From Campylobacterales bacterium (lineage in GTDB: Bacteria > Campylobacterota > Campylobacteria > Campylobacterales > Sulfurimonadaceae), in the NCBI GenBank assembly GCA_026390165.1, contig JAPLGM010000025.1, positions 29,768-93,767 on the forward strand: a stretch of 64,000 bases of DNA, given 5' to 3'. The notes under the pieces are model-generated. The model saw only the letters and a program-made list of their open reading frames with translations, did no database searches and was not told where the DNA came from. Positions 40,275-58,394 of this stretch are shown here, in pieces (the first letter of the stretch is position 1; each line of letters opens with the position of its first letter). The translations under genes and the position numbers were made by a program.

Positions 40275-40291
40275 AAGCAATAAAAGTTCCA
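40275..40291 (-). promoter_or_regulatory. Canonical sigma54 promoter of flgL
   Basis: TGGAAC-TTTTA-TTGCTT (GG-N10-GC). The -12 C is 33 nt upstream of the ATG. Confidence 0.8.
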
Positions 40292-40336
40292 CATAGACTA
40301 AATCGACATAAGTACAAAAAAAATTAATGAAGCGTC

Positions 40337-40352
40337 TCGTACAAAAATTGCA
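40337..40352 (+). promoter_or_regulatory. Variant -24/-12 promoter of nifE
   Basis: TCGTAC-AAAAA-TTGCA, with C in place of the -25 G. The -12 C is 35 nt upstream of the GTG. Confidence 0.6.
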
Positions 40353-41792: not shown

Positions 41793-42626
41793 ATGAATCA
41801 AGAATTGCATTATATTCAAGCGTTTTATGATCAGACGATCGCATTTTTGACCAATTACAGTTTCCAAATTATTGGTGCTTTGATTGTTGTCCTACTCGGA
41901 TGGTTTCTTTCAAAATATGTTTTCACTCTCTTAATTAAACTTTTTACTGAGCATGATTTTGATGTGACCCTTGGGAAGTTTATTGCTAATATTGTGAGAA
42001 TACTAATATTTGGAGCAATGTTTGTCATAGCCATCGGAAAACTTGGTATATCTATTGCTCCCTTCATTGCGGCAATCGGGGCTGTTTTTCTGACTGCCGG
42101 TTTGGCATTGCAGGGGAGTGTCGCCAATTTTGCTGCCGGAATTTCACTCATTATTACCCGACCGTTCAAAATCGGCGATACGATTTCAGTCAATAAAATT
42201 TTTGGTGTTGTAGAAGAGATCAAACTCGCCTACACGACCCTGCGAACCGAAGATGAAGAGATCATCACTGTTCCTAATAAAAATATGATTGGCGAGGTGA
42301 TTGTTAACTCTTTTAACTATCGTATTGTGGAGTCGAGTGTCGGTATCTCCTACCATGATGATGCGGAAAAAGCGATTGCCCTTATCAAAAAGACAATTGA
42401 CGGTTTTGAGAATCTTTCCAATGAAAACAAATCTATTGTTGGAATACAAAAATTCGGTGATAATGCGGTTGAGATAGGGATGCGCTACTGGGTGCCTACG
42501 AGAAATTTTTTCAGGATTCAGTATGAAGTGAATATGGCGGTCTATAAAGCACTCAATGACGCAAAAATAACGATCCCTTATCCTCAGAGAGAGGTTCATG
42601 TGTATGGGCAAAATATCCTAAAATAA
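41793..42626 (+). CDS. mscS: Small-conductance mechanosensitive channel
   Basis: GLALQGSVANFAAG, RPFKIGD and IPYPQREVH motifs. Confidence 0.93.
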   Translation: MNQELHYIQAFYDQTIAFLTNYSFQIIGALIVVLLGWFLSKYVFTLLIKLFTEHDFDVTLGKFIANIVRILIFGAMFVIAIGKLGISIAPFIAAIGAVFLTAGLALQGSVANFAAGISLIITRPFKIGDTISVNKIFGVVEEIKLAYTTLRTEDEEIITVPNKNMIGEVIVNSFNYRIVESSVGISYHDDAEKAIALIKKTIDGFENLSNENKSIVGIQKFGDNAVEIGMRYWVPTRNFFRIQYEVNMAVYKALNDAKITIPYPQREVHVYGQNILK

Positions 42627-42651
42627 AGGATAAAGAACCCAACGGGCACCC

Positions 42652-43245
42652 TTATGCCGAAAAGTTTTTCGATAGGGTTTCTTGCAGTGCGTGTAGGGCA
42701 TTATCGAGGCTAAAATCCGATTTGTATACATCATGGACGGAGTAACTTTTTAACGGCGTGGCTCCGCAAAATTGAAATGTTTTGTGTAAAGCGACATTCG
42801 CCTGATCGACGCTCATCCCTTCAAAAAAACCATTAGGATTGTTAAACTCACTCGTCGGGCAGTTGTAGGTGAAGCTGAGCATATACTCTTTCCCCTGCAT
42901 CAATCCTCCACTGCCGTATTTTTTGGATTCATCGTCACGGCTTCGTCCGTCGCTGACGTAGGTAACGGTGTTGTTTCCGCTTGAGAAAACTTCATCGACG
43001 TATTTTTTTGCTAGCCACGGAAGCCCCATCCAGTAGACGGGTGATTGGACAAAAATCGTATCCGCCCATGTAAGCTTTTCAAGCTCTTCGACGACATTGT
43101 AGCCCTCATCAATTGCGGTTTCGCGCACTTCGTAGCCGTTTGCCGAAAAAAACTTTTTGGCTTCGTTGAGGAGATCATGCGTCAGATTGCCGTTGGCAAA
43201 TCCATCGTATTTTTGGTGGAGGTTGAGGAGGAGGACGTGTTTCAT
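42652..43245 (-). CDS. mdaB: NAD(P)H:quinone oxidoreductase MdaB
   Basis: QSPVYWMGLPW and DGRSR...KKYGSGG motifs. Confidence 0.88.
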   Translation of the reverse strand: MKHVLLLNLHQKYDGFANGNLTHDLLNEAKKFFSANGYEVRETAIDEGYNVVEELEKLTWADTIFVQSPVYWMGLPWLAKKYVDEVFSSGNNTVTYVSDGRSRDDESKKYGSGGLMQGKEYMLSFTYNCPTSEFNNPNGFFEGMSVDQANVALHKTFQFCGATPLKSYSVHDVYKSDFSLDNALHALQETLSKNFSA

Positions 43246-43387
43246 GGTATTTTTCCTAGGATAAAGTAATATGTAGATTGTACTAGGATAGGGTTAATGG
43301 GAGATTCATAAAAAGGCACATTGTTTAGGTATTGAAATCCCTAAACAAATCTGATATAATGGGAATTAATTACCATAAGGGGCGAAA

Positions 43388-44599
43388 ATGTTCTCAAAAC
43401 TCTTAATTGAATCGAAAAAATTTATCCTTCGCAATGATCTCTCCTATCAAAGATACTTTATCAAAGAAAATAAAATCAAGCATCGCCTCACCATCATAGT
43501 GGGGCAAAGAGGGATAGGAAAAACTACCACCATCGCGCAGTATATGAAACAACACGACGCACTAAAATCACTCTATGTCAGTATGGACAGCTTTTTGGTG
43601 GGTGAGCTGTCGATGTATGAAATAGCCGAACGCTTTGAGATGGAGGGGGGTAAACTGCTGTGTTTTGATGAGATACACAAATACCAAAATTGGTCGCAAG
43701 AGTTAAAATCGATTTATGATACTTTTCCCTCATTGCAAATTATAGCCTCTGGAAGCTCGGCTTTGGAGATCAACAAGGGGAGTCATGACTTAAGCCGAAG
43801 AGCCAACACGCTCAAAATGGTGGGAATGAGTCTGAGAGAGTATATGGAGCTAACGCTAGCGATAGAACTCCCAAAATACACCCTCCAAGAGATACTACAA
43901 AACCACGAAAATATTGCTTTTGATATCGTGAGTAAATTAGAGAAGATTGATAAAAAGATACTTCCACTCTTTCAGAGATATTGCAAAGTCGGGTACTATC
44001 CGTACAGTTTAAGTATTCAAGACGATGAAATATTTTTTGATATGCTGAACCAAAATATTAATGTATCCATTTCAAGCGATTTGCTTTTTGTCTATCCCAG
44101 TCTCGATGGAAACAGCATCAAAAAGCTTAAACTTCTACTGAATATAATTATGGAAAGTGTGCCGTTTGTCCCTGTGATCGAAAAGCTAAAAAATTCACTC
44201 GATATTGGCGATGGCAGAACGTTGAAGGATTATTTTATCAAACTCGAAGATGCGGGCATTTTGCACCTGCTAATGAAGGCATCGGGTAAAGGGCTTCGAA
44301 AACTGGAAAAACCCGAAAAAATATATCTCAATAATACAAATCTGCTTTCCATAATTACCCCAGAAATAGGGACAGTGCGAGAAACATTTTTTCTAAATGT
44401 TCTAAGTACCCTGCACACTGTCACCTATCCGCAAAAAGGAGATTTTTTGGTGGACAATAGGTACCTTTTTGAAATCGGTGGAAAAAATAAAGGCTTTACA
44501 CAGATAAAAGACATAGAAAATAGTTTTGTGGCGAGCGACGACATTGAGATTGGATATAAAAATAAAATTCCCCTCTGGATATTTGGATTTTTGTATTAA
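43388..44599 (+). CDS. AAA+ ATPase with DUF4143 domain
   Basis: GQRGIGKTT Walker A, FDEIH Walker B, ASGSS, KIYLNN and DFLVD...EIGGK motifs. Confidence 0.88.
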   Translation: MFSKLLIESKKFILRNDLSYQRYFIKENKIKHRLTIIVGQRGIGKTTTIAQYMKQHDALKSLYVSMDSFLVGELSMYEIAERFEMEGGKLLCFDEIHKYQNWSQELKSIYDTFPSLQIIASGSSALEINKGSHDLSRRANTLKMVGMSLREYMELTLAIELPKYTLQEILQNHENIAFDIVSKLEKIDKKILPLFQRYCKVGYYPYSLSIQDDEIFFDMLNQNINVSISSDLLFVYPSLDGNSIKKLKLLLNIIMESVPFVPVIEKLKNSLDIGDGRTLKDYFIKLEDAGILHLLMKASGKGLRKLEKPEKIYLNNTNLLSIITPEIGTVRETFFLNVLSTLHTVTYPQKGDFLVDNRYLFEIGGKNKGFTQIKDIENSFVASDDIEIGYKNKIPLWIFGFLY

Positions 44600-44710: not shown

Positions 44711-44726
44711 TCGCACAAATCTTGCA
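44711..44726 (+). promoter_or_regulatory. Variant -24/-12 promoter of nifN
   Basis: TCGCAC-AAATC-TTGCA. The -12 C is 28 nt upstream of the ATG. Near-identical to the nifE site. Confidence 0.62.
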
Positions 44727-49056: not shown

Positions 49057-49083
49057 CAATTCAGCTAAATTTTAGCTGAATTG
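49057..49083 (+). terminator. Perfect 13-bp inverted repeat after the ferredoxins
   Basis: CAATTCAGCTAAA-T-TTTAGCTGAATTG followed by CCTTCTTTTT. Confidence 0.5.
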
Positions 49084-49132
49084 CCTTCTTTTTAATCACC
49101 TATAATTCCCATCGATCCCTATAATATTAGTT

Positions 49133-49148
49133 AAGAACACAATATGCA
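49133..49148 (+). promoter_or_regulatory. Variant -24/-12 site upstream of rpoN
   Basis: AAGAAC-ACAAT-ATGCA. The -12 C is 39 nt upstream of the ATG. 14 of 16 positions are identical to the site at 58329-58344. Confidence 0.5.
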
Positions 49149-49185
49149 GTCAAATGCATAATAAACTCATTATTAGGGATTACTA

Positions 49186-50451
49186 ATGCACACGTCTCTC
49201 TCCTATAAACAAAAACAACTCCCTAGATTATCGATGCAAACATGGCTTCCGCTCTTGCAATGTTCCCTCAATGATTTGGAGAAACATTTACAAGTCATTA
49301 GCAATGAAAACCCTTGTCTTGAAGTAAAATCAGGATTTGAGGAATCCAATGCACAAGCAGGTGGATCATCCGTATACGGTGCATTCCAAAATTATGTCTC
49401 TAACGCCTCTTCGGATCAAATTGAGTGGTTGAGTATCTCCTCAACCTCCTTGTATGAAAAATTGGATGAACAGATCGTCGCGCCTTTATTTCCCACCCCC
49501 ATATCTCAGAAAATTGCCCGTCAGATTATCTATTATATCAGTGATGAAGGGTATTTTGAAGGGAGTGTTGAAGAGATTGCCCAACAATGTGATACCGATG
49601 TCCAAACCGTGGAGCGGGTACGTCAGCGATTTTCTCATCTTGAGCCAGCAGGCGTTGGGGCGTGTGATTACAAAGAGTCCTTTTTGTTTCAGCTCAATGA
49701 TTACGAACTGGATGATGATTTGAGTATTTTGCTCTCAGCGATGATTTTACAGTTCGATAAGATGGAAAAATTTATCAAAAATCCCCGTTTCACAGATGCG
49801 AAACATGTGCTACAACATCTCAAAAATCCTCCTGCATTGGAGTATATGGAGCCAGAGGCACAAATAATTCCTGATCTTTTTGTAGAATTGACAGGATCAG
49901 AATTGGATATTCGAATCAATCATGCTTTTTACCCCGATTTAAAAGTTAATATGATTGATAAATACGACAATTTTGCCAAACAAAAGTTCAAAGAGGCACG
50001 AGAATTGGTGAAACTCATGGATCTTCGAAAAGCGACCCTCTATAATGTTGCTTTGGTCTTAATCGAAAAGCAGTACAGTTTCTTTATGGGAGGTGAGCTT
50101 AAACCGCTTCGACTTCAAGATGTTGCGGATGAGTTGGGCTTTAATGAATCGACAATTTCCAGAGCCATTTCGGATAAATATATGCAAACACAGCGGGGGC
50201 TCTATCCGTTCAAAGATTTTTTCTCCAATTCGATCGGTGAAGTATCGACCGCTGAGATCAAACACTTTTTGAAACGGCTAGTGTCGAGTGAAAACAAAGA
50301 GGATCCTTTTAGTGACAAAATACTTCATGAGATGATCGAAGAGCGTTTTGGGGTAACAATGGTACGTCGCCTTATCGCCAAATATCGGCAAGAACTTGAT
50401 ATTCCACCTTATAAAGAGCGGCTGTTTTTATACAAACTTGAGTTATTGTAA
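49186..50451 (+). CDS. rpoN: RNA polymerase sigma-54 factor (nif-island paralogue)
   Basis: Region I WLPLLQ, EPAGVGA, HTH ESTISR, PFSD, and an RpoN box reading VRRLIAKYRQ. Confidence 0.93.
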   Translation: MHTSLSYKQKQLPRLSMQTWLPLLQCSLNDLEKHLQVISNENPCLEVKSGFEESNAQAGGSSVYGAFQNYVSNASSDQIEWLSISSTSLYEKLDEQIVAPLFPTPISQKIARQIIYYISDEGYFEGSVEEIAQQCDTDVQTVERVRQRFSHLEPAGVGACDYKESFLFQLNDYELDDDLSILLSAMILQFDKMEKFIKNPRFTDAKHVLQHLKNPPALEYMEPEAQIIPDLFVELTGSELDIRINHAFYPDLKVNMIDKYDNFAKQKFKEARELVKLMDLRKATLYNVALVLIEKQYSFFMGGELKPLRLQDVADELGFNESTISRAISDKYMQTQRGLYPFKDFFSNSIGEVSTAEIKHFLKRLVSSENKEDPFSDKILHEMIEERFGVTMVRRLIAKYRQELDIPPYKERLFLYKLELL

Positions 50452-50461
50452 TTGATATCTC

Positions 50462-51373
50462 TTATACTTCGCAATAAATGGTATTTCTTCCCATCTCTTT
50501 TGCCTTGTAAAGCATTTCATCAACGAGTTTTAAAAGGTTTTCGCAGTCACTTTCGTTGTTTATTGTTGAAATTGCATATCCCACACTAACCGTCACATGG
50601 GCAGCTACTTTTGAATAATTATGGGGGATATTAAGATTCTCAACGCTGTCTTTGAGTTTTTGTGCCACATTTTTTGCCCCCTCTATGTCTATTTCAGGGA
50701 GAATGACAATAAACTCTTCTCCACCGTATCGACATACAAAGTCGCTATCTCTATTAAGGACGCTTTGAAGTTTATTGGCTACTTTTATGAGGCATTCGTC
50801 ACCGGCACCGTGCCCGTATCCGTCATTAAAGGCTTTAAAGTAGTCGATATCCATCATAACTAGTGCAAGGGGTTTAGCGTGTCTCATTGATCGGCCACAC
50901 TCGCTTTTAAATGTTTCGTCAAATCTTCGTCTATTGGCAATGCCGGTAAGGCCGTCTATCATGGCAAGTTTTTCGAGCATCTGTGTTTTTAGTTTTAGAT
51001 TTATATGGGTCTTCACCCTCGCTTTGATTAATAAGGGCTCATAGGGTTTGACGATATAGTCAACCGCACCAAGATTGAATCCTTGCATCTGATCGCTGAC
51101 TTCGTCTTTAGCACTGACAAAAATAACGGGAATCTCGGAAGTCGCCGAGTTTGATTTGAGTTTTTTACAGACTTCGTAGCCATCCATAACCGGCATCATA
51201 ATGTCCAAAAGTATCAGATCGGGCATTTCTATAGCGTTCGCTATCTGCAGCGCCTTTTCTCCACTCGTGGCAATCTTGATACTATAATCATTTCCCAGAA
51301 TTTCTGCCAGAAGCTGTATATTGGCCGTTGCGTCATCCACAATTAATATAGTAGGTTTTTTGCTAAACATCAC
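50462..51373 (-). CDS. Response regulator diguanylate cyclase (REC-GGDEF)
   Basis: REC domain (LIVDD, LLDIMMP), intact GGEEF and RxxD I-site (RDSD). Confidence 0.93.
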
Positions 51374-54300
51374 TTCGCCTTTAAATCAGTTGTTATTATA
51401 TCTATTGTGTCGATTGCTGCATCATAGTTCATGTTTCTTATTTGTGATACAAGTAAGGCTACGTGTACCTCATCCTTTACGCCATCTAAACACGCTTGCA
51501 GCTCATGCAACATACTCTCTGAAATAAACATATCCTGAGATGCGATCTCTCTTACCGTACTTAACATCTCAAGCGCCTCATCTGCTGTGCAAGCATTTAC
51601 GCTAGGATGGATTTCATCCATAAATATATTTTCAATATTAGTAAGGGTCTTATCGAGTTGATTAAAAAATTCATCAAGCGACTCACTCTTTTTTTGCTGA
51701 AGCTGATTTTCTAGTGTTTTTGTTGCTTCATAAAGCTCTAGTGCCCCTATATTTCCAGAAGCACCTTTTAGTGAATGTACCAATGCCAGCGCTTCATCAT
51801 ATCTATTATTATCTAAATAATGGCGCAGACTCTCTTTCGTATCTTTTTGGCTTTTTGCAAAATTAGTCAAGATATGATAGATCGCGTTACGATCCAGTCC
51901 TATTTGTGCAAACCTTTCATTGTCAAACCCTTTGAGATACATCCCTTTATCATTATTAGAGAGGGTATCTATATCTTCTTTATTTTGACGTTTTATCCAT
52001 TTTTGAAGGACAATGAAGAGCTCGTTAACGTCAATAGGTTTGGAGATATGGTCGTTCATGCCGGCAGCAAAAGTTTCTTCTCTGTCTTGTTTCATGGCAG
52101 CTGCTGTCATTGCCACAATAGGCAAAGAGTGGCATCCCGGTAAGGCTCTGATTTTAGCGGTGGCCTCAAAGCCGTCCATTATGGGCATCTGCAAATCCAT
52201 CAGTACGATGTCAAATTGCTCTTTAGAAGCTTTTTCAACGGCTTCTAGCCCATTTTCAGCAATTTCTATAGTAACGATTCCCAGCTTTTCAAGAAACCCC
52301 TTGGCGACTAGCTGGTTTGTCTGGTTATCTTCTACCAGAAGGACTTTTACTCCGCGAAACGCTTTTGAACCATTATTTAAGCTCTCACTCGTTTCCAAAG
52401 AGAAGGGTGTAAACCTAGTATCATCTTCCCCTTGAAGCGTCATGATTGTATCCATCAAATTTGATGGAGTTACCGGTTTTTCTAATATGGCATCGAGAGT
52501 GACGTGATGCGCAGACTCAAGAACTTCATCTTTTTTGTAGGTCGTAACCATAATTACGAGGGGGGAATGTTTCGCTTCATAACTCTTCATCTGTTCTTCG
52601 AGATGCGTTGCAAGTTCAATGCCGTCCATTCCGGGCATTTTCCAGTCTATTAGATACGCCTCATACGGTTTCCCCTCTTCAAGTGCCTTCAAAGAAAGGT
52701 TTAGAGCCTTTTCACCGGAGGTAGCCAATGTCACATCAAAAGACCATGACTCAAGAATTTTCTGCATTATCTCTAACGACGTTTCCTGATCATCGACCAC
52801 GAGGGTTTTCATCCCTCTGAGATTGTATATACTTCTCTGCTCTTCAGGTTTATTGGCAGGCAGTAGTGGAATTTTGAAGAAAAACGTGCTTCCTTTCCCC
52901 GGCTCGCTATCAATCCCTATTTCACCCCCCATCAAATCTATAATCTGTTTACTGATGGTAAGCCCAAGACCTGTTCCGCCAAACTTTCTCGTAGTAGACA
53001 TATCGGCCTGCGTAAATGCCTGAAACAATTTATCCGCTTGTTCTTTCGTCATACCGATACCGGTATCTTGTATCGTAAATAACAGTTCTTGATTCCCATC
53101 AGCATTAACTTGAGGGGCTATTTTTAGATGAATTTCCCCTTTGTAGGTAAACTTAACCGCATTGCCGACTAAATTATTGAGTATCTGAGATAATCTAAGA
53201 GGATCACCTCTTAGCCTATCAGGCACACCGTTTGCCATCTCAATAAAGATTTCTAACCCCTTCTCTTCGGCCTTTACGCTAAAAAGACCTGAGACGTTGC
53301 GCAGCAGTTTTTCAAGCGAATAGTCGATATTTTCAAGGCCGAGTTTGCCTGCCTCAATTTTAGAATAGTCCAGAATATCGTTAAGAATATTAAGGAGAGC
53401 TGCGGATGAATCCTGTACTTTTTGCAAATAGTTTCTTTGCATAGGGGTAAGCTCGGTATCGAGTACCAGCTTTGTCAGACCCAATACGGCATTCATAGGG
53501 GTTCGTATCTCATGGCTCATATTGGCGACAAAGTCGCTTTTTGCCTTGTTTGCCGATTCTGCTTGCTCTTTGGCGTGCATTAGTGCTTGTTCGGCTAGTC
53601 TTTGCTCGGTAATGTCTTGGATGGTACCAATAGAGCGGAGCGGTTTTTCGTTCTCGTCAAAAGTGGTTTCGCACTGTTCACGAACATATTTTATTCTACC
53701 GTCGTTCATCAGCAGCCTATGAACTATCTCATAACCGTTTTTCGTTTCCAATGAGTGTGTATACGCATCATTAACCCTGTCTCTATCATCCGGGTGAATA
53801 GCATGTAAAAACGCTTCATAGGATGCGTAAAATTTTTCTTTGTCAAGTTCAAATAGGTGAAAAATTTCATCGGACCAATCAAGCTTGTTGCTAATCAAAT
53901 CAAGAGACCAATTGCCGATTTTGGCTAGCGACTCGGCTTTTTTCAGATTATCGTTTATCTGAGCGGATTCTTCATAGCTGGCATCAAGCGCGGTATTGGC
54001 CTCTTCGAGTTCTCTTGCCTGCTTAGTTAGCAGCTCGTTAAGCCTGATTGCCTCGTCTTTTTGCGCTTCTGCCTTTTGCAGTTCAAGCTTGCTGAGTGCC
54101 GCGCGAAAATTAGCTTTTATTACACATAATAACAAATACGTTAAGAGAGTAAAAAACAAGATCGTTAGCGTGCTAGTTAACAAAGCGTTGTGAAACTCTT
54201 TTTTCATGATCGGCAGTGTCGCATCTTGGCTGTAAAAAGTGATGTATCCGATATAGTGTTTTGAGTAATCATAAAATGGGTTAAGGACTATCGCATAATC

Positions 54301-55188
54301 CTCATTGTTCACTTTTGCATAAAAACAGATAGCCTGTTTCTTAGATATTGACTCGTCAAATTCTTTCGGTTTTTGCTCAAAAATCTTTTGTAATAGCTCA
54401 AGTTCTTTATCCTGATAAATTAACGGGTTGTGATACAAGTTATTTGCAAGGAGGGAAGTCGCCATTTTTTTAGAATTAATATCGATCGGTATTTCAGGCG
54501 GGGATTCCAATGATAGGTACGTACTTGTTCTGAAGTTGTCTTGCAATGTTTTGTAGATTTGCGACTCATCAATACCCAGTTCAATACTCCCCAAGAAACG
54601 GTTCTGTTCGCGTATTGGAAAAACATATCGATAGGCATTAAAAAAACGGCCCAATTCAAAACCGTAATCACTTTTTTGATGTTCATGAACACTCTTTATG
54701 AGCTTTCTAAAAGATAGTACATTATCACCATACTCTTTTTGTTTTTGAAACCGGATAATAATATCTCCGCGTGTATTTTGAATCTGAAGTATCTTTAACG
54801 AGAGTGTCGTATTTGTTTTGTAGGTAGACTCAAATTTTGCTAATAGCAAATCGTGGGCTTTTTTGGTTTCATTTTTGTCATTTGAAATTTTGAGCGCATT
54901 TTTCATTGTTTCATCTGCGATTAATCTTTGAGCTTGAACTTCCGAAGCTGTTTTATACGCTTTGATAGTAGCGTTATATTCTTCATTCCATTGAGTTTTT
55001 AAGTTATTTAAGTAATCCTCAACATTCGCATCATATTTATTTTTTGTAATTGAGTAGGTACCGATTTCACCGATTATAAATACGAAAAGTATTAAAACCC
55101 GGAATGAAATTGTACTGGATACTAATAATGATACGAGCCCAGCTATTAATCTAGTATAAGATGATTTGATACGTGAGAATTTTGTCAT
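51370..55188 (-). CDS. Hybrid histidine kinase (Cache-PAS-HisKA-HATPase-REC-REC-Hpt)
   Basis: [24 protein letters not shown], two REC domains and HSLKG. Confidence 0.93.
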
Positions 55189-57765
55189 TTAATTCCCCTC
55201 TTTTAAAATTTTCATAATCGTATCTATGGTGTCAAGCGCCTTAGTATAGTCCATCTCTCTTATTTGCAATATGAGTCTGGCTATTTGTTTTTCATCCACG
55301 GTTCCATGCAGAGATTCTTGAACTTCATAGACGATATTCTCAGGGACAAACATGTCTTGTGATGTAATACTCTTTAATTGTTCAAGCACTTTTAAGGCAT
55401 CGTGTATGGTATAGTTTTTTGAGTTATCAGTTTTTTTGTTTATCGGTATAGTTTCAATATCGGTCAGTATTTCGGCAAGAGAGTGGTAAAACTCCTCAAG
55501 CGAATCGGTATGATTTGAGTTAAGCTCATTCTCCAGTTTTTTCGCCGCCTCATAAAGCTTTGTCGCCCCTATGTTTCCGCTAGAGCCTTTTATCGAGTGG
55601 ATTAGTGCGGATACTTTATCAAATCTACCATGCGCTAAATGGTCATTTAGCATCACTTTTGCATCTTTATAGCTTCGAACGAAACTGTAAAACATATCGA
55701 CAATGGCATCACGATCCAGCCCTATGTGTCTGAATGTAGCCAATCGTGTAGTGTCAAAGCCCTTGAAATCTATATTGTTTTCATCCGTATTTTTTTTTAC
55801 CTCAATAGAACAGGGTTGGCTATCGTGCGGCTTTATCCACTTTTGAAGGGTTGTAGCCAACTCTTCAAAATTTATAGGCTTAGAAATATGATCGTCCATA
55901 CCGGCTGAGAGGGAATCGGCTTTATCTTGTTTCATGGCGGATGCGGTCATCGCAACAATAGGTATATTTTTGCCGCAGGGTAAAGCTCTGATTTTGCGTG
56001 TCGCTTCAAATCCCCCCATAACGGGCATTTGCAAATCCATCAATACAATGTCGTATGTATTCTCGGTCACTTTGTTGAGCGCTTCAAGACCATTTTCAGC
56101 GATTTCTACAACACCCCCTAATTTATCCAGAAACCCTTTGGCGACCAATTGATTGGTCGGGTTGTCTTCTACCAAAAGAATCTTCGCCCCTTGGATCGCT
56201 TTCGATGCCTCGATTATAATTTTATCGCTATTCGAAGGAGTGGTTGCAAACGTACTGATTTCTCCCCCTTGAAGGGTCATAATCGTATCCATAAGGTTTG
56301 AAGGGGTGACGGGTTTTTCCAGTATTGCATCCAGTTTTATGTTCTTTGCAGTTTCTACGACTTTATCCTTGCTGCATGCGGTTACCATGATTACAAGAGG
56401 CGCGCGTCCACTCTTATGGAGATCGGTCTGCTCGTTAATAAGTTTAGCCAGTTCTACTCCATCCATCCCCGGCATTTTCCAGTCTATCAGATAGATTTCA
56501 AAAGGGTTACCTTGTTTCAATGCTTCCAACGAAAGGCTAAGTGCTTTTTCTCCGGAGTTTGCCAAGGTTACGTCAAAAAACCATGAACGGAGGATTTTTT
56601 CCATCACTTCGAGTGACGTTACCTGATCATCTACGACCAACGTCCTCATCCCTTTTAAATGTAAGGGGCTTCTTCCGTGTATGGATTCTTTGGCAGGTTG
56701 CAACGGTATCGTGAAGTAAAACGTACTCCCTCTACCAAATTCGCTTTCAACCCATATCTCTCCACCGATTAGCGCCACAAGCTGTTTGCTGATGGTCAGC
56801 CCAAGCCCGGTGCCTCCATATTTTCGGGTGGTGGAGGTATCGGCCTGGGTAAATGGCTGAAACAGATTGCCGGCTTGCTCTTTGGTCATACCGATACCGG
56901 TATCTTGTATGGTAAATAAAAGCATTTGTGTACTGTTTGGATCGATCAGGAGATCAATTTTGATATGAATTTCCCCTTTTTCGGTAAATTTTACGGCATT
57001 TCCGACTAGATTGTTAAGGATTTGAGATAGACGAAGTGGATCTCCCCTGAGCATAAGCGGCATACCCTCGGCAATATCAAAAAAGATCTCTATATCTTTC
57101 TCTTCGGCTCTTGCACTAAAGAGTCCGGATACATTGTGTAATACTGCCTCTAATGAGTAATCAACCTCTTCAAGACCTAGTTTGCCTGCTTCCATTTTGG
57201 AGTAGTCTAAAATATCATTGAGAATGTTTAAGAGGGCGGTTGATGAGTCTTGTACTTTTTGAAGATAGTTTCTTTGCATGGGGGTAAGTTCTGTATCCAG
57301 TACCAGCTTTGTGAGTCCCAAAACGGCATTCATCGGGGTTCGTATCTCGTGGCTCATATTGGCTACAAAGTCGCTTTTTGCCTTGTTTGCCGCTTCTGCA
57401 TGTTCTTTGGCACTCACTAATTCCCTATTGATTCGCTTTAAGTTTTCACTGACAACCCCAAAAGCGTACCCCAATACAATAAAAACCACTACCGAAAGAT
57501 ACGCACTGGGATTGTGTTTGACCAATTCAAAGGTTGGCGGTATGAAAAACCAAAAAACTATGATTGCACTGACAACCGATGAGATCATAGCTCCACGCAG
57601 ACCCCCAAGGCGTGCCATAAAAAATACGGTAGGATAAAACAAAAACCATACATACGGTTTAAACATAAACCATAGAGAAGTTTGCAGTGCAAGGGTGATA
57701 AAAGGGACAATAAATGGCAATAAATAGGTCAATATAAAATTTTTATCTATTCGACTAAATCCCAT
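55189..57765 (-). CDS. Hybrid histidine kinase (membrane sensor-HisKA-HATPase-REC-REC-Hpt)
   Basis: Four-TM DUF4118-like sensor and the same kinase core as its neighbour, with HSIKG. Start placed at ATG 57765 (RBS AAGGA). Confidence 0.92.
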
Positions 57766-57899
57766 TGACCTATCCTTTATTAAGTGGTGATACTTGAATG
57801 ATAACATATTTTTATGTGAGCTGAATTCAGTCCGAAGGATCTTTATACGAATACGCGATACCGTGCTTGGCACGGTATGAAAAAAAAGAGATAGTAGGA

Positions 57900-58295
57900 T
57901 TAGCTAGATGGCGTATCAATAGCCGTGAAGAAGGTATTGCTTTTGGTTGTGGTACGAGGCTCTGGTTGAGCAAGTGCCGTTTCTCCTTTTTCTCCTGTAC
58001 GGATACGTTCGACTTCAAGGACGGGGGTGACCCACATTTTTCCGGCACCGTGTCCTAGATCTTGGGTATGGGAACGGACACACTCCATAGCTGTTTTTTT
58101 ATGCGCTTCATCGGAGACGACGATAAGTAGCATCACTTTGGGAAATAGATCGGGAGCATTATTTTTTTCAGCAATCCCCAGTGACCCTTTTCCGATCACA
58201 TCCATGACGGTTACCCCTTCGATTAAATTGTCAAAAAGTTCTTTTAACACATCGTTGAGGCAGTGTTTGTTAAATACAGCGGTAATTTGGACCAT
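57900..58295 (-). CDS. P-II superfamily protein (non-canonical)
   Basis: [18 protein letters not shown] and RIRTGE motifs, with a short T-loop. Confidence 0.85.
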
Positions 58296-58328
58296 TTTGG
58301 ACCCCTAGTATTGGAATATTGTAGATAT

Positions 58329-58344
58329 TGCATATTGCGTTCTA
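58329..58344 (-). promoter_or_regulatory. Variant -24/-12 promoter of the P-II operon
   Basis: TAGAAC-GCAAT-ATGCA on the minus strand. The -12 C is 35 nt upstream of the ATG. Confidence 0.5.
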
Positions 58345-58378: not shown

Positions 58379-58394
58379 GAGAACATCTTTTGCA
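58379..58394 (+). promoter_or_regulatory. Variant -24/-12 promoter of nifU
   Basis: GAGAAC-ATCTT-TTGCA. The -12 C is 39 nt upstream of ATG 58432. Confidence 0.55.

Follow-up and report, generated by a model that had tools for sequence, protein, structure and literature searches.

Does a bacterium that keeps one sigma-54 factor for its flagellar genes hold a second one for nitrogen fixation, and does this second factor read promoters of its own? The question is raised by a complete rpoN gene, here called rpoN-nif, that lies inside a nif island in 64,000 nt of DNA from a Campylobacterales bacterium (assembly GCA_026390165.1, contig JAPLGM010000025.1, positions 29,768 to 93,767). This whole stretch is referred to below as the window (G000:C1:29768-93767), and positions without a contig label are counted from its first base; the genome, G000, is that of a Sulfuricurvum, measures 2.64 Mb and is 99.99% complete. 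The reading of the gene product, RpoN-nif, as a nif-dedicated sigma factor with a promoter class of its own is well supported by comparative evidence.

Two sigma-54 paralogues in one genome

rpoN-nif (49186-50451, plus strand) starts with ATG and encodes a sigma-54 paralogue of 421 aa, in which the AID, CBD and DBD domains span residues 6-47, 83-255 and 262-412, respectively (PF00309, 1e-7; PF04963, 1.8e-32; PF04552, 9.3e-45). The protein scores 320 bits against TIGR02395, above the cut-off of 277, and 488.5 bits against the RpoN equivalog NF004602 (PRK05932.2-4), slightly under the curated cut-off of 506, which fits a diverged paralogue. An earlier note on this DNA had rightly placed a complete rpoN within the nif island, but had let it begin at 49133, where the -24/-12-like site ahead of the gene starts.

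The RpoN box, VRRLIAKYRQ (50362-50391), keeps both arginines and the K-Y-R, with a Leu (codon CTT, 50371-50373) in place of Thr; in an alignment to solved chains, this Leu falls on T457 of the E. coli and K. pneumoniae sigma-54. R455 and R456 are unchanged, and the R456 substitution of engineered orthogonal pairs is thus absent. The box is directly followed by ELDIPPYKERLF; the post-box residues IPPYKERLF (50401-50427) are specific to the subclade described below as B2, with a Tyr (50410-50412) at the place of S470, a Lys aligned to N471 and a Phe (50425-50427) at position 475, whereas Campylobacterales RpoNs outside B2 read IPSSKERKK or similar. The helix-turn-helix (HTH), NESTISRA, has the STISR motif (NESTISRAISDKY), and its core ESTISRA (50146-50166) reads the -12 element. 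Box, CTT codon, IPPYKER and a normal ESTISR were all as the earlier note had described them.

RpoN-nif is not the only sigma-54 of this genome. As a check, the note had asked for a second rpoN, and there is one on another contig (G000:C5:25862-27103), 39% identical to RpoN-nif and with the box VRRTIAKYRS; the two proteins fall into separate clades (see below). It lies directly downstream of an lptB-like ABC ATPase gene, so labelled from sequence resemblance only; the lptB neighbourhood is the usual location of rpoN. Only two convincing sigma-54 activators (bacterial enhancer-binding proteins) are encoded in the genome: a NifA-like protein of 544 aa with GAF, AAA and HTH_8 domains (C1:94114-95748, just outside the window), and a FlgR-like protein of 385 aa on contig C8, with REC and AAA domains and without HTH_8.

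Two promoter classes

Does each sigma factor have promoters of its own? A genome-wide scan for NG-N8-TTGC in intergenic regions and in the correct orientation, refined by laxer scans, separates two classes of sites. Those of the nif class (n = 14) all lie on the nif contig, 25-70 nt ahead of a start codon, and read T-[A/C]-G-A-A-C-N5-[T/A]-TGC-A: position -25 is A in eight, C in five, T in one and G in none, while -11 is A in 14/14, giving TGCA at the -12/-11 element. The 3' G of the pair, at -24, is constant in 14/14, in part because the search pattern imposed it. Sites of the flagellar class, TGGAAY-N5-TTGCTT, have G at -25 and T at -11 in 8/8 cases each. Fisher's test gives p = 3e-6 for either position. 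The GG of the -24 element is a near-invariant textbook feature of sigma-54 promoters, and its 5' G is thus what the nif class lacks.

The nif-class sites precede nifE, nifN, rpoN-nif, an operon that begins with a P-II gene, nifU, genes for a peroxiredoxin and a flavodiiron protein, nifQ, an AAA ATPase gene, nifS, genes for a SIR2-like protein and an unknown open reading frame (ORF), nifB and nifH. Flagellar-class sites stand 27-42 nt ahead of the genes for FlgL, FlgH, FlgI, FlgG/F, FlgE, a FliK-like protein, an LPP20 lipoprotein (beside flgR) and a small ORF.

Five of the nif-class promoters are in the window: nifE (TCGTAC-AAAAA-TTGCA, 40337-40352, plus strand) and nifN (TCGCAC-AAATC-TTGCA, 44711-44726, plus), both with C at -25; rpoN-nif itself (AAGAAC-ACAAT-ATGCA, 49133-49148, plus), 37 nt ahead of its ATG; and, with A at -25, the P-II operon (TAGAAC-GCAAT-ATGCA, 58329-58344, minus) and nifU (GAGAAC-ATCTT-TTGCA, 58379-58394, plus). 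These are the five local promoters that had previously been said to lack the -25 G; they prove to be real, and nine more follow further along the contig, including those of nifH, nifB, nifS and nifQ. The window also holds a canonical GG promoter of the flagellar class, that of flgL (TGGAAC-TTTTA-TTGCT, 40276-40291, minus). The flgL and nifE promoters stand back to back at 40276-40352, with 45 nt between them.

Could the G-less sites be chance matches? H-G sites (H being A, C or T) in promoter position number 27 genome-wide, and 13 of them lie within 79 kb, about 3% of the genome; this clustering argues against chance. H-G sites resembling a -24/-12 element also occur off the nif contig (C3:39069, minus; C18:54515, plus; C19:181930, minus; C5:6330, plus), ahead of the genes for a haem-binding protein, PhoX and others; those before the haem-binding protein and PhoX, neither of them flagellar, carry TTGCTTT. 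These outlying sites may be additional members of the regulon or chance matches.

TGT-N10-ACA, the canonical NifA upstream activator sequence, is found upstream of 4/13 sites, against a background of 4.5%, which is weak support for NifA control. Other elements, unlike TGT-N10-ACA, are candidate sites for an activator or for IHF: a conserved TTACAAA(A/T)TTGT palindrome about 110-130 nt upstream of the nifH -24 element (G000:C1, ~135770-135900, and the orthologous nifH upstream regions L133-L148), repeated TTGTCAC/TTGTCG motifs in nifH upstream regions of B2 genomes, and a TGACA-N4-TGTCA palindrome ahead of the P-II promoter.

Two clades of RpoN and the place of the promoter change

Is the second sigma factor peculiar to this genome? 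We surveyed 301 Campylobacterales genomes, of which 65 carry nifH, together with 36 species representatives of Sulfuricurvum, and built a tree from the 62 RpoNs of nifH-bearing genomes. It separates a flagellar or housekeeping clade from a nif-associated clade, each with a support of 99 in the Shimodaira-Hasegawa-like approximate likelihood ratio test (SH-aLRT). The former follows taxonomy. Genes of the latter are often 0-60 kb from nifH, in many families. Both paralogues are present in about 30 of the 36 Sulfuricurvum representatives.

Within the nif-associated clade, subclade B1 (Arcobacteraceae, Sulfurovaceae, Sulfurospirillaceae and some others) has the box VRRTITKYRK followed by IPSSKERKK in 76/79 further loci, and its nifH promoters, where readable (n = 24), all have GG (TGGAAC or CGGAAC-N5-ATGCA). 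Subclade B2, to which RpoN-nif belongs, comprises Sulfurimonadaceae and members of families f19, f16 (G242) and f14 (G171); it is recognized by IAKYRQ and the unique tail IP[SP][YF]KER.F. In crown B2, 43 nif promoters were read in six genomes, of which a single one has G at -25: none of 14 in G000, 9 in G146, 10 in G211, 4 in G242 and 2 in G219, and one of 4 in G263, at nifH. G219 had been considered as a natural loss of rpoN-nif that kept TAGAAC promoters; this was rejected, the first 85 codons of the gene being present at a contig end.

The Glu ahead of STISRA (HESTISR in E. coli) is retained in nearly all RpoNs of the nif clade and is replaced by P, V, Q, S, H, T, A or C in the flagellar clade, which parallels the A versus T difference of the promoters at -11.

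The earlier note had matched the Thr-to-Leu change to the loss of the -25 G, and had predicted a nif-linked clade marked by RRL. The clade exists; RRL as its mark does not hold, since residue 457 in B2 is V (54 loci), L (20), S (16) or A. The promoters are of the same type with all of them. RRL was not seen in flagellar RpoNs, the finding that would have spoken against the note: RRT is kept in 27/27 flagellar-clade proteins examined. This constancy, and the fact that all crown B2 sigma factors lack Thr and go with H-G promoters, are what one would expect if the substitution itself were the specificity switch. Published data also fit a position of residues 457 and 471 close to the DNA: T457 and N471 are said to hydrogen-bond with the -24 DNA, and an A/C double substitution at 457/458 abolishes binding by the K. 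pneumoniae sigma-54 (PMC2715252). We nonetheless hold such a switch to be very unlikely. The same promoters go with V, S or A at this residue, and G171, sister to crown B2, has kept Thr (KRRTVVKYRQ...IPSYKKRKF) with TAGAAC/T at four island promoters, its nifH and rpoN having TGGAAT. Conversely, the Ser-box B1 RpoNs of G064 and G168 are paired with TGGAAC, and the Ser-box B2 RpoN of G263 with GGGAAC at nifH. Box position 4 varies more widely as well: among the best 150 RpoN representatives at 50% identity, the box could be read in 137; T accounts for 118 of these, S for 9, V for 6 and A for 4, so that 19/137 (~14%) have S, V or A. Finally, where the -24 preference was changed by engineering, R456 and the 3' G were involved and not residue 457 (PMC12096077). 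Leu as the determinant was rejected on account of the V, S and A orthologues and of the Thr of G171.

The altered -24 element thus belongs to the whole B2 subclade and not to the Leu residue. The H-G promoters are followed more closely by an aromatic residue at 470 and a Phe at 475 than by residue 457, since G171 has both. We infer that changes at 457, 470 and 475 may relax or shift the reading of -25.

Proposed insulation of the nif regulon from FlgR

Why would a second sigma factor be kept? The distribution of activators is suggestive. Orthologues of FlgR, counted when full-length and at least 60% identical, are missing exactly where only a nif-type rpoN is present, namely in Arcobacteraceae, Sulfurovaceae and G263; no FlgR match was found by this search in G072 either. 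Arcobacter has lost RpoN and FlgRS for flagella (PMC9321776, PMC2147049). Genomes that have FlgR, a NifA-type activator and nifH carry both rpoN paralogues, in seven families and with one exception, G050. Three genomes of family f16 (G051, G088, G119) have nifH and only the flagellar-type rpoN; they show no NifA-type activator and no sigma-54-like site before nifH, and nif control in them is probably sigma-54-independent.

We consider it fairly likely that RpoN-nif and the adjacent NifA-type activator transcribe the nif regulon from a distinct promoter class, with the -25 change as a subclade trait, and that this arrangement insulates the regulon from FlgR. RpoN-nif with NifA would act at the promoters that lack the 5' G and have A at -11, while the lptB-linked sigma-54 with FlgR would drive flagellar genes from TGGAAY-N5-TTGCTT. 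The enhancer-independent action of FlgR is established in H. pylori. Without a DNA-binding domain, FlgR would act on any sigma-54 closed complex, so that a shared sigma factor would expose nif promoters to it; a sigma factor of their own, together with promoters poorly bound by the flagellar one, would keep the nitrogenase genes from firing at the flagellar checkpoint. Insulation from FlgR is therefore, on comparative grounds, the probable selective reason for the second factor. As to the order of events, changes in the RpoN domain would have relaxed the reading of -25, promoters would then have left GG, and Thr457 would thereby have become dispensable.

Would the island not simply have brought its sigma factor along? 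The nif island could move horizontally with rpoN and nifA, the two sigma factors being interchangeable, A or C at -25 a tolerated lineage-specific weakening, and specificity conferred by NifA and FlgR only. The nif-type RpoN tree does depart from taxonomy, as the G242 copies (f16) nest within Sulfurimonadaceae and G197 (f1) has the B1 type. We nevertheless regard such a passenger as unlikely. Specificity through activator sites cannot insulate nif from a FlgR that has no DNA-binding domain; the paralogue is kept across about 30 Sulfuricurvum species and seven families; -25 G occurs in 0/14 versus 8/8 sites, with an equally clean split at -11; and both G's are near-invariant in canonical sigma-54 promoters, as is established (PMC12096077, discussion).

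Another possibility is that the flagellar-type sigma-54 uses the H-G sites with NifA, while RpoN-nif is employed otherwise, for example in competition for core polymerase or at a few genes. This is scarcely credible, given that the same class of site stands ahead of rpoN-nif in all lineages and that genomes without FlgR and the flagellar sigma (G263, Arcobacteraceae, Sulfurovaceae) depend for nif on the nif-type sigma alone.

Several observations weigh against the insulation of nif by a sigma factor with its own promoter class. G263, whose Ser-box B2 sigma is its sole RpoN, has a GG promoter (GGGAAC) at the orthologous position before nifH; specificity may thus be relaxed rather than switched, and the passenger explanation gains from this case, as it does from G050, which in a 140-contig assembly has FlgR, a NifA-like gene and nifH and yet only the flagellar-type rpoN. 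NifA and its upstream sites could by themselves give regulon specificity, as in diazotrophs with a single rpoN. Sulfurospirillaceae have two paralogues with GG nif promoters (CGGAAC). The covariation of RpoN box and promoter for which the earlier note had called amounts to n ~1, the promoter change falling on about one branch of the tree and being a single phylogenetic event. Lastly, the search pattern itself fixed the -24 G, the -22 A and the TGC, and left only -25 and -11 to vary.

With respect to the insulation from FlgR proposed above, the Sulfurospirillaceae, which have two sigma factors and GG nif promoters, imply that the -25 change is an extra layer and not a requirement for having two. 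The A/T difference at -11 is found in B1 as well as in B2; it may be the more ancient discriminator, and -11 plays such a part in Cereibacter sphaeroides too (PMC11999139).

Relation to known systems

How new is this arrangement? Specialised RpoN paralogues are of a known kind; a natural change of the -24 element is the new part. No description for Sulfuricurvum or Campylobacterota was found in the searchable literature, subscription journals not being covered; the earlier note knew of none.

The closest parallel is Cereibacter (Rhodobacter) sphaeroides, with RpoN1 for nif and RpoN2 for flagella (Poggio et al., 2002, 2006, as summarised in PMC11999139). There, too, are several rpoN paralogues, one serving nif with NifA and one the flagellum, with cognate activators, a part that the NifA-like and the FlgR-like protein may play here, and discrimination involves -11, where the genome studied here has A in its nif and T in its flagellar sites. 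Here, however, in a different phylum, the -24 element is also altered by loss of its 5' G, which has not been reported in C. sphaeroides. The flagellar activator, moreover, lacks a DNA-binding domain. The pattern in which the two paralogues are retained across genomes hints that they may not be interchangeable.

As far as is known, the rpoN copies in nif or symbiosis islands of rhizobia, and nifR4 of R. capsulatus, use canonical TGG-N8/9-TGC promoters and are often partly redundant, whereas the whole regulon described here has a non-canonical -25. In other respects, M. loti rpoN2 (PMC3538637), Bradyrhizobium DOA9 (PMC9977809) and R. capsulatus nifR4 are similar, with an rpoN in or beside a nif or sym cluster and NifA-RpoN regulons. 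The flagellar side resembles the RpoN-FlgRS system of Campylobacter and Helicobacter: the other rpoN goes with a FlgR without DNA-binding domain and with TGGAAY-N5-TTGCTT before flgE, flgG, flgH, flgI and flgL. rpoN-nif differs from that system in belonging to the other RpoN clade and in not being tied to flagellar genes by regulation.

In engineered orthogonal sigma-54 factors (R456H/Y/L; PMC12096077), a sigma-54/promoter pair distinct from the native one likewise works with NifA and nif promoters. Those pairs carry a substitution of R456 together with an exchanged 3' G (GG to GA, GC or GT). In the present case R455, R456 and the 3' G do not vary; it is the 5' G that has disappeared, and residues 457, 470 and 475 that have changed. 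The authors of that study remark that natural sigma-54 recognition has not diversified, and ask why (PMC12096077). A stronger proposal, which we advance tentatively and which may well go too far, would be that a sigma-54 that evolved a changed -24 preference in nature, with ~14 co-evolved promoters per genome, forms an insulated nif regulon, selected because of the enhancer-independent FlgR and with determinants outside R455/R456, at 457, 470 and 475; such a factor would be the first equivalent, in nature, of the engineered orthogonal sigma-54 systems.

In this diazotrophic clade of Campylobacterales, one cell holds both a nif regulon on promoters without the 5' G and flagellar promoters of the canonical type. 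If the sigma factors truly discriminate, they would offer synthetic biology a natural orthogonal sigma-54/promoter/NifA module, reveal new residues that tune the reading of -24, and explain how bacteria with an enhancer-free flagellar activator avoid cross-firing of other sigma-54 regulons. As to annotation, the nif regulon of Sulfuricurvum and Sulfurimonas will escape standard scans for sigma-54 promoters that are anchored on GG.

Upstream region of rpoN-nif and surroundings of the nif island

How is rpoN-nif itself expressed? The site ahead of the gene recurs as [T/A]AGAAC-AAAAT-ATGCA before the orthologous rpoN of about 55 related genomes, amid flanks that have diverged, which again argues against a chance match; it is retained in genomes with a Leu, Val or Ser box. 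Because the gene bears a sigma-54-type site of its own class, rpoN-nif is probably subject to positive autoregulation. Directly upstream of this site is a sigma-70 -10-like element, CCCTATAAT (49117-49125, plus strand), conserved in Sulfuricurvum, where CCTATAAT precedes the rpoN upstream site; it is a possible basal promoter of rpoN-nif. Further upstream, after a ferredoxin gene, the terminator-like inverted repeat AATTCAGCTAAATTTTAGCTGAATT (49058-49082, plus strand) would set rpoN apart from the operon that precedes it. rpoN-nif has exact matches (100% identity) among metatranscriptome contigs from lake water; these, being unstranded and shallow, are uninformative on 5' ends and may stem from DNA carry-over.

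rpoN-nif closes a run of genes made up of nifE, an insert, nifN, nifX, a nifX-associated gene, a flavodoxin gene, nifW, an ORF and two [2Fe-2S] ferredoxin genes, and nifH, nifB, nifS and nifQ follow 20-60 kb further on the same contig. The insert between nifE and nifN (41793-44599) encodes an MscS-like channel, a flavodoxin-like reductase (on the minus strand) and a P-loop ATPase, and nifN has its own promoter.

On the minus strand, 50462-58344 forms one run behind a nif-type promoter: the P-II gene, genes for two large hybrid histidine kinases and that for a REC-GGDEF diguanylate cyclase. From the position of this promoter, cyclic di-GMP signalling appears to be placed under nif control. Other genes behind nif-type promoters encode a peroxiredoxin, a flavodiiron protein and two MoxR/CbbQ-like AAA ATPases (G000:C1:97644-98192, 101320-102555, 106750-107787 and 110972-111967), which probably belong to the regulon and serve oxygen protection and maturation.

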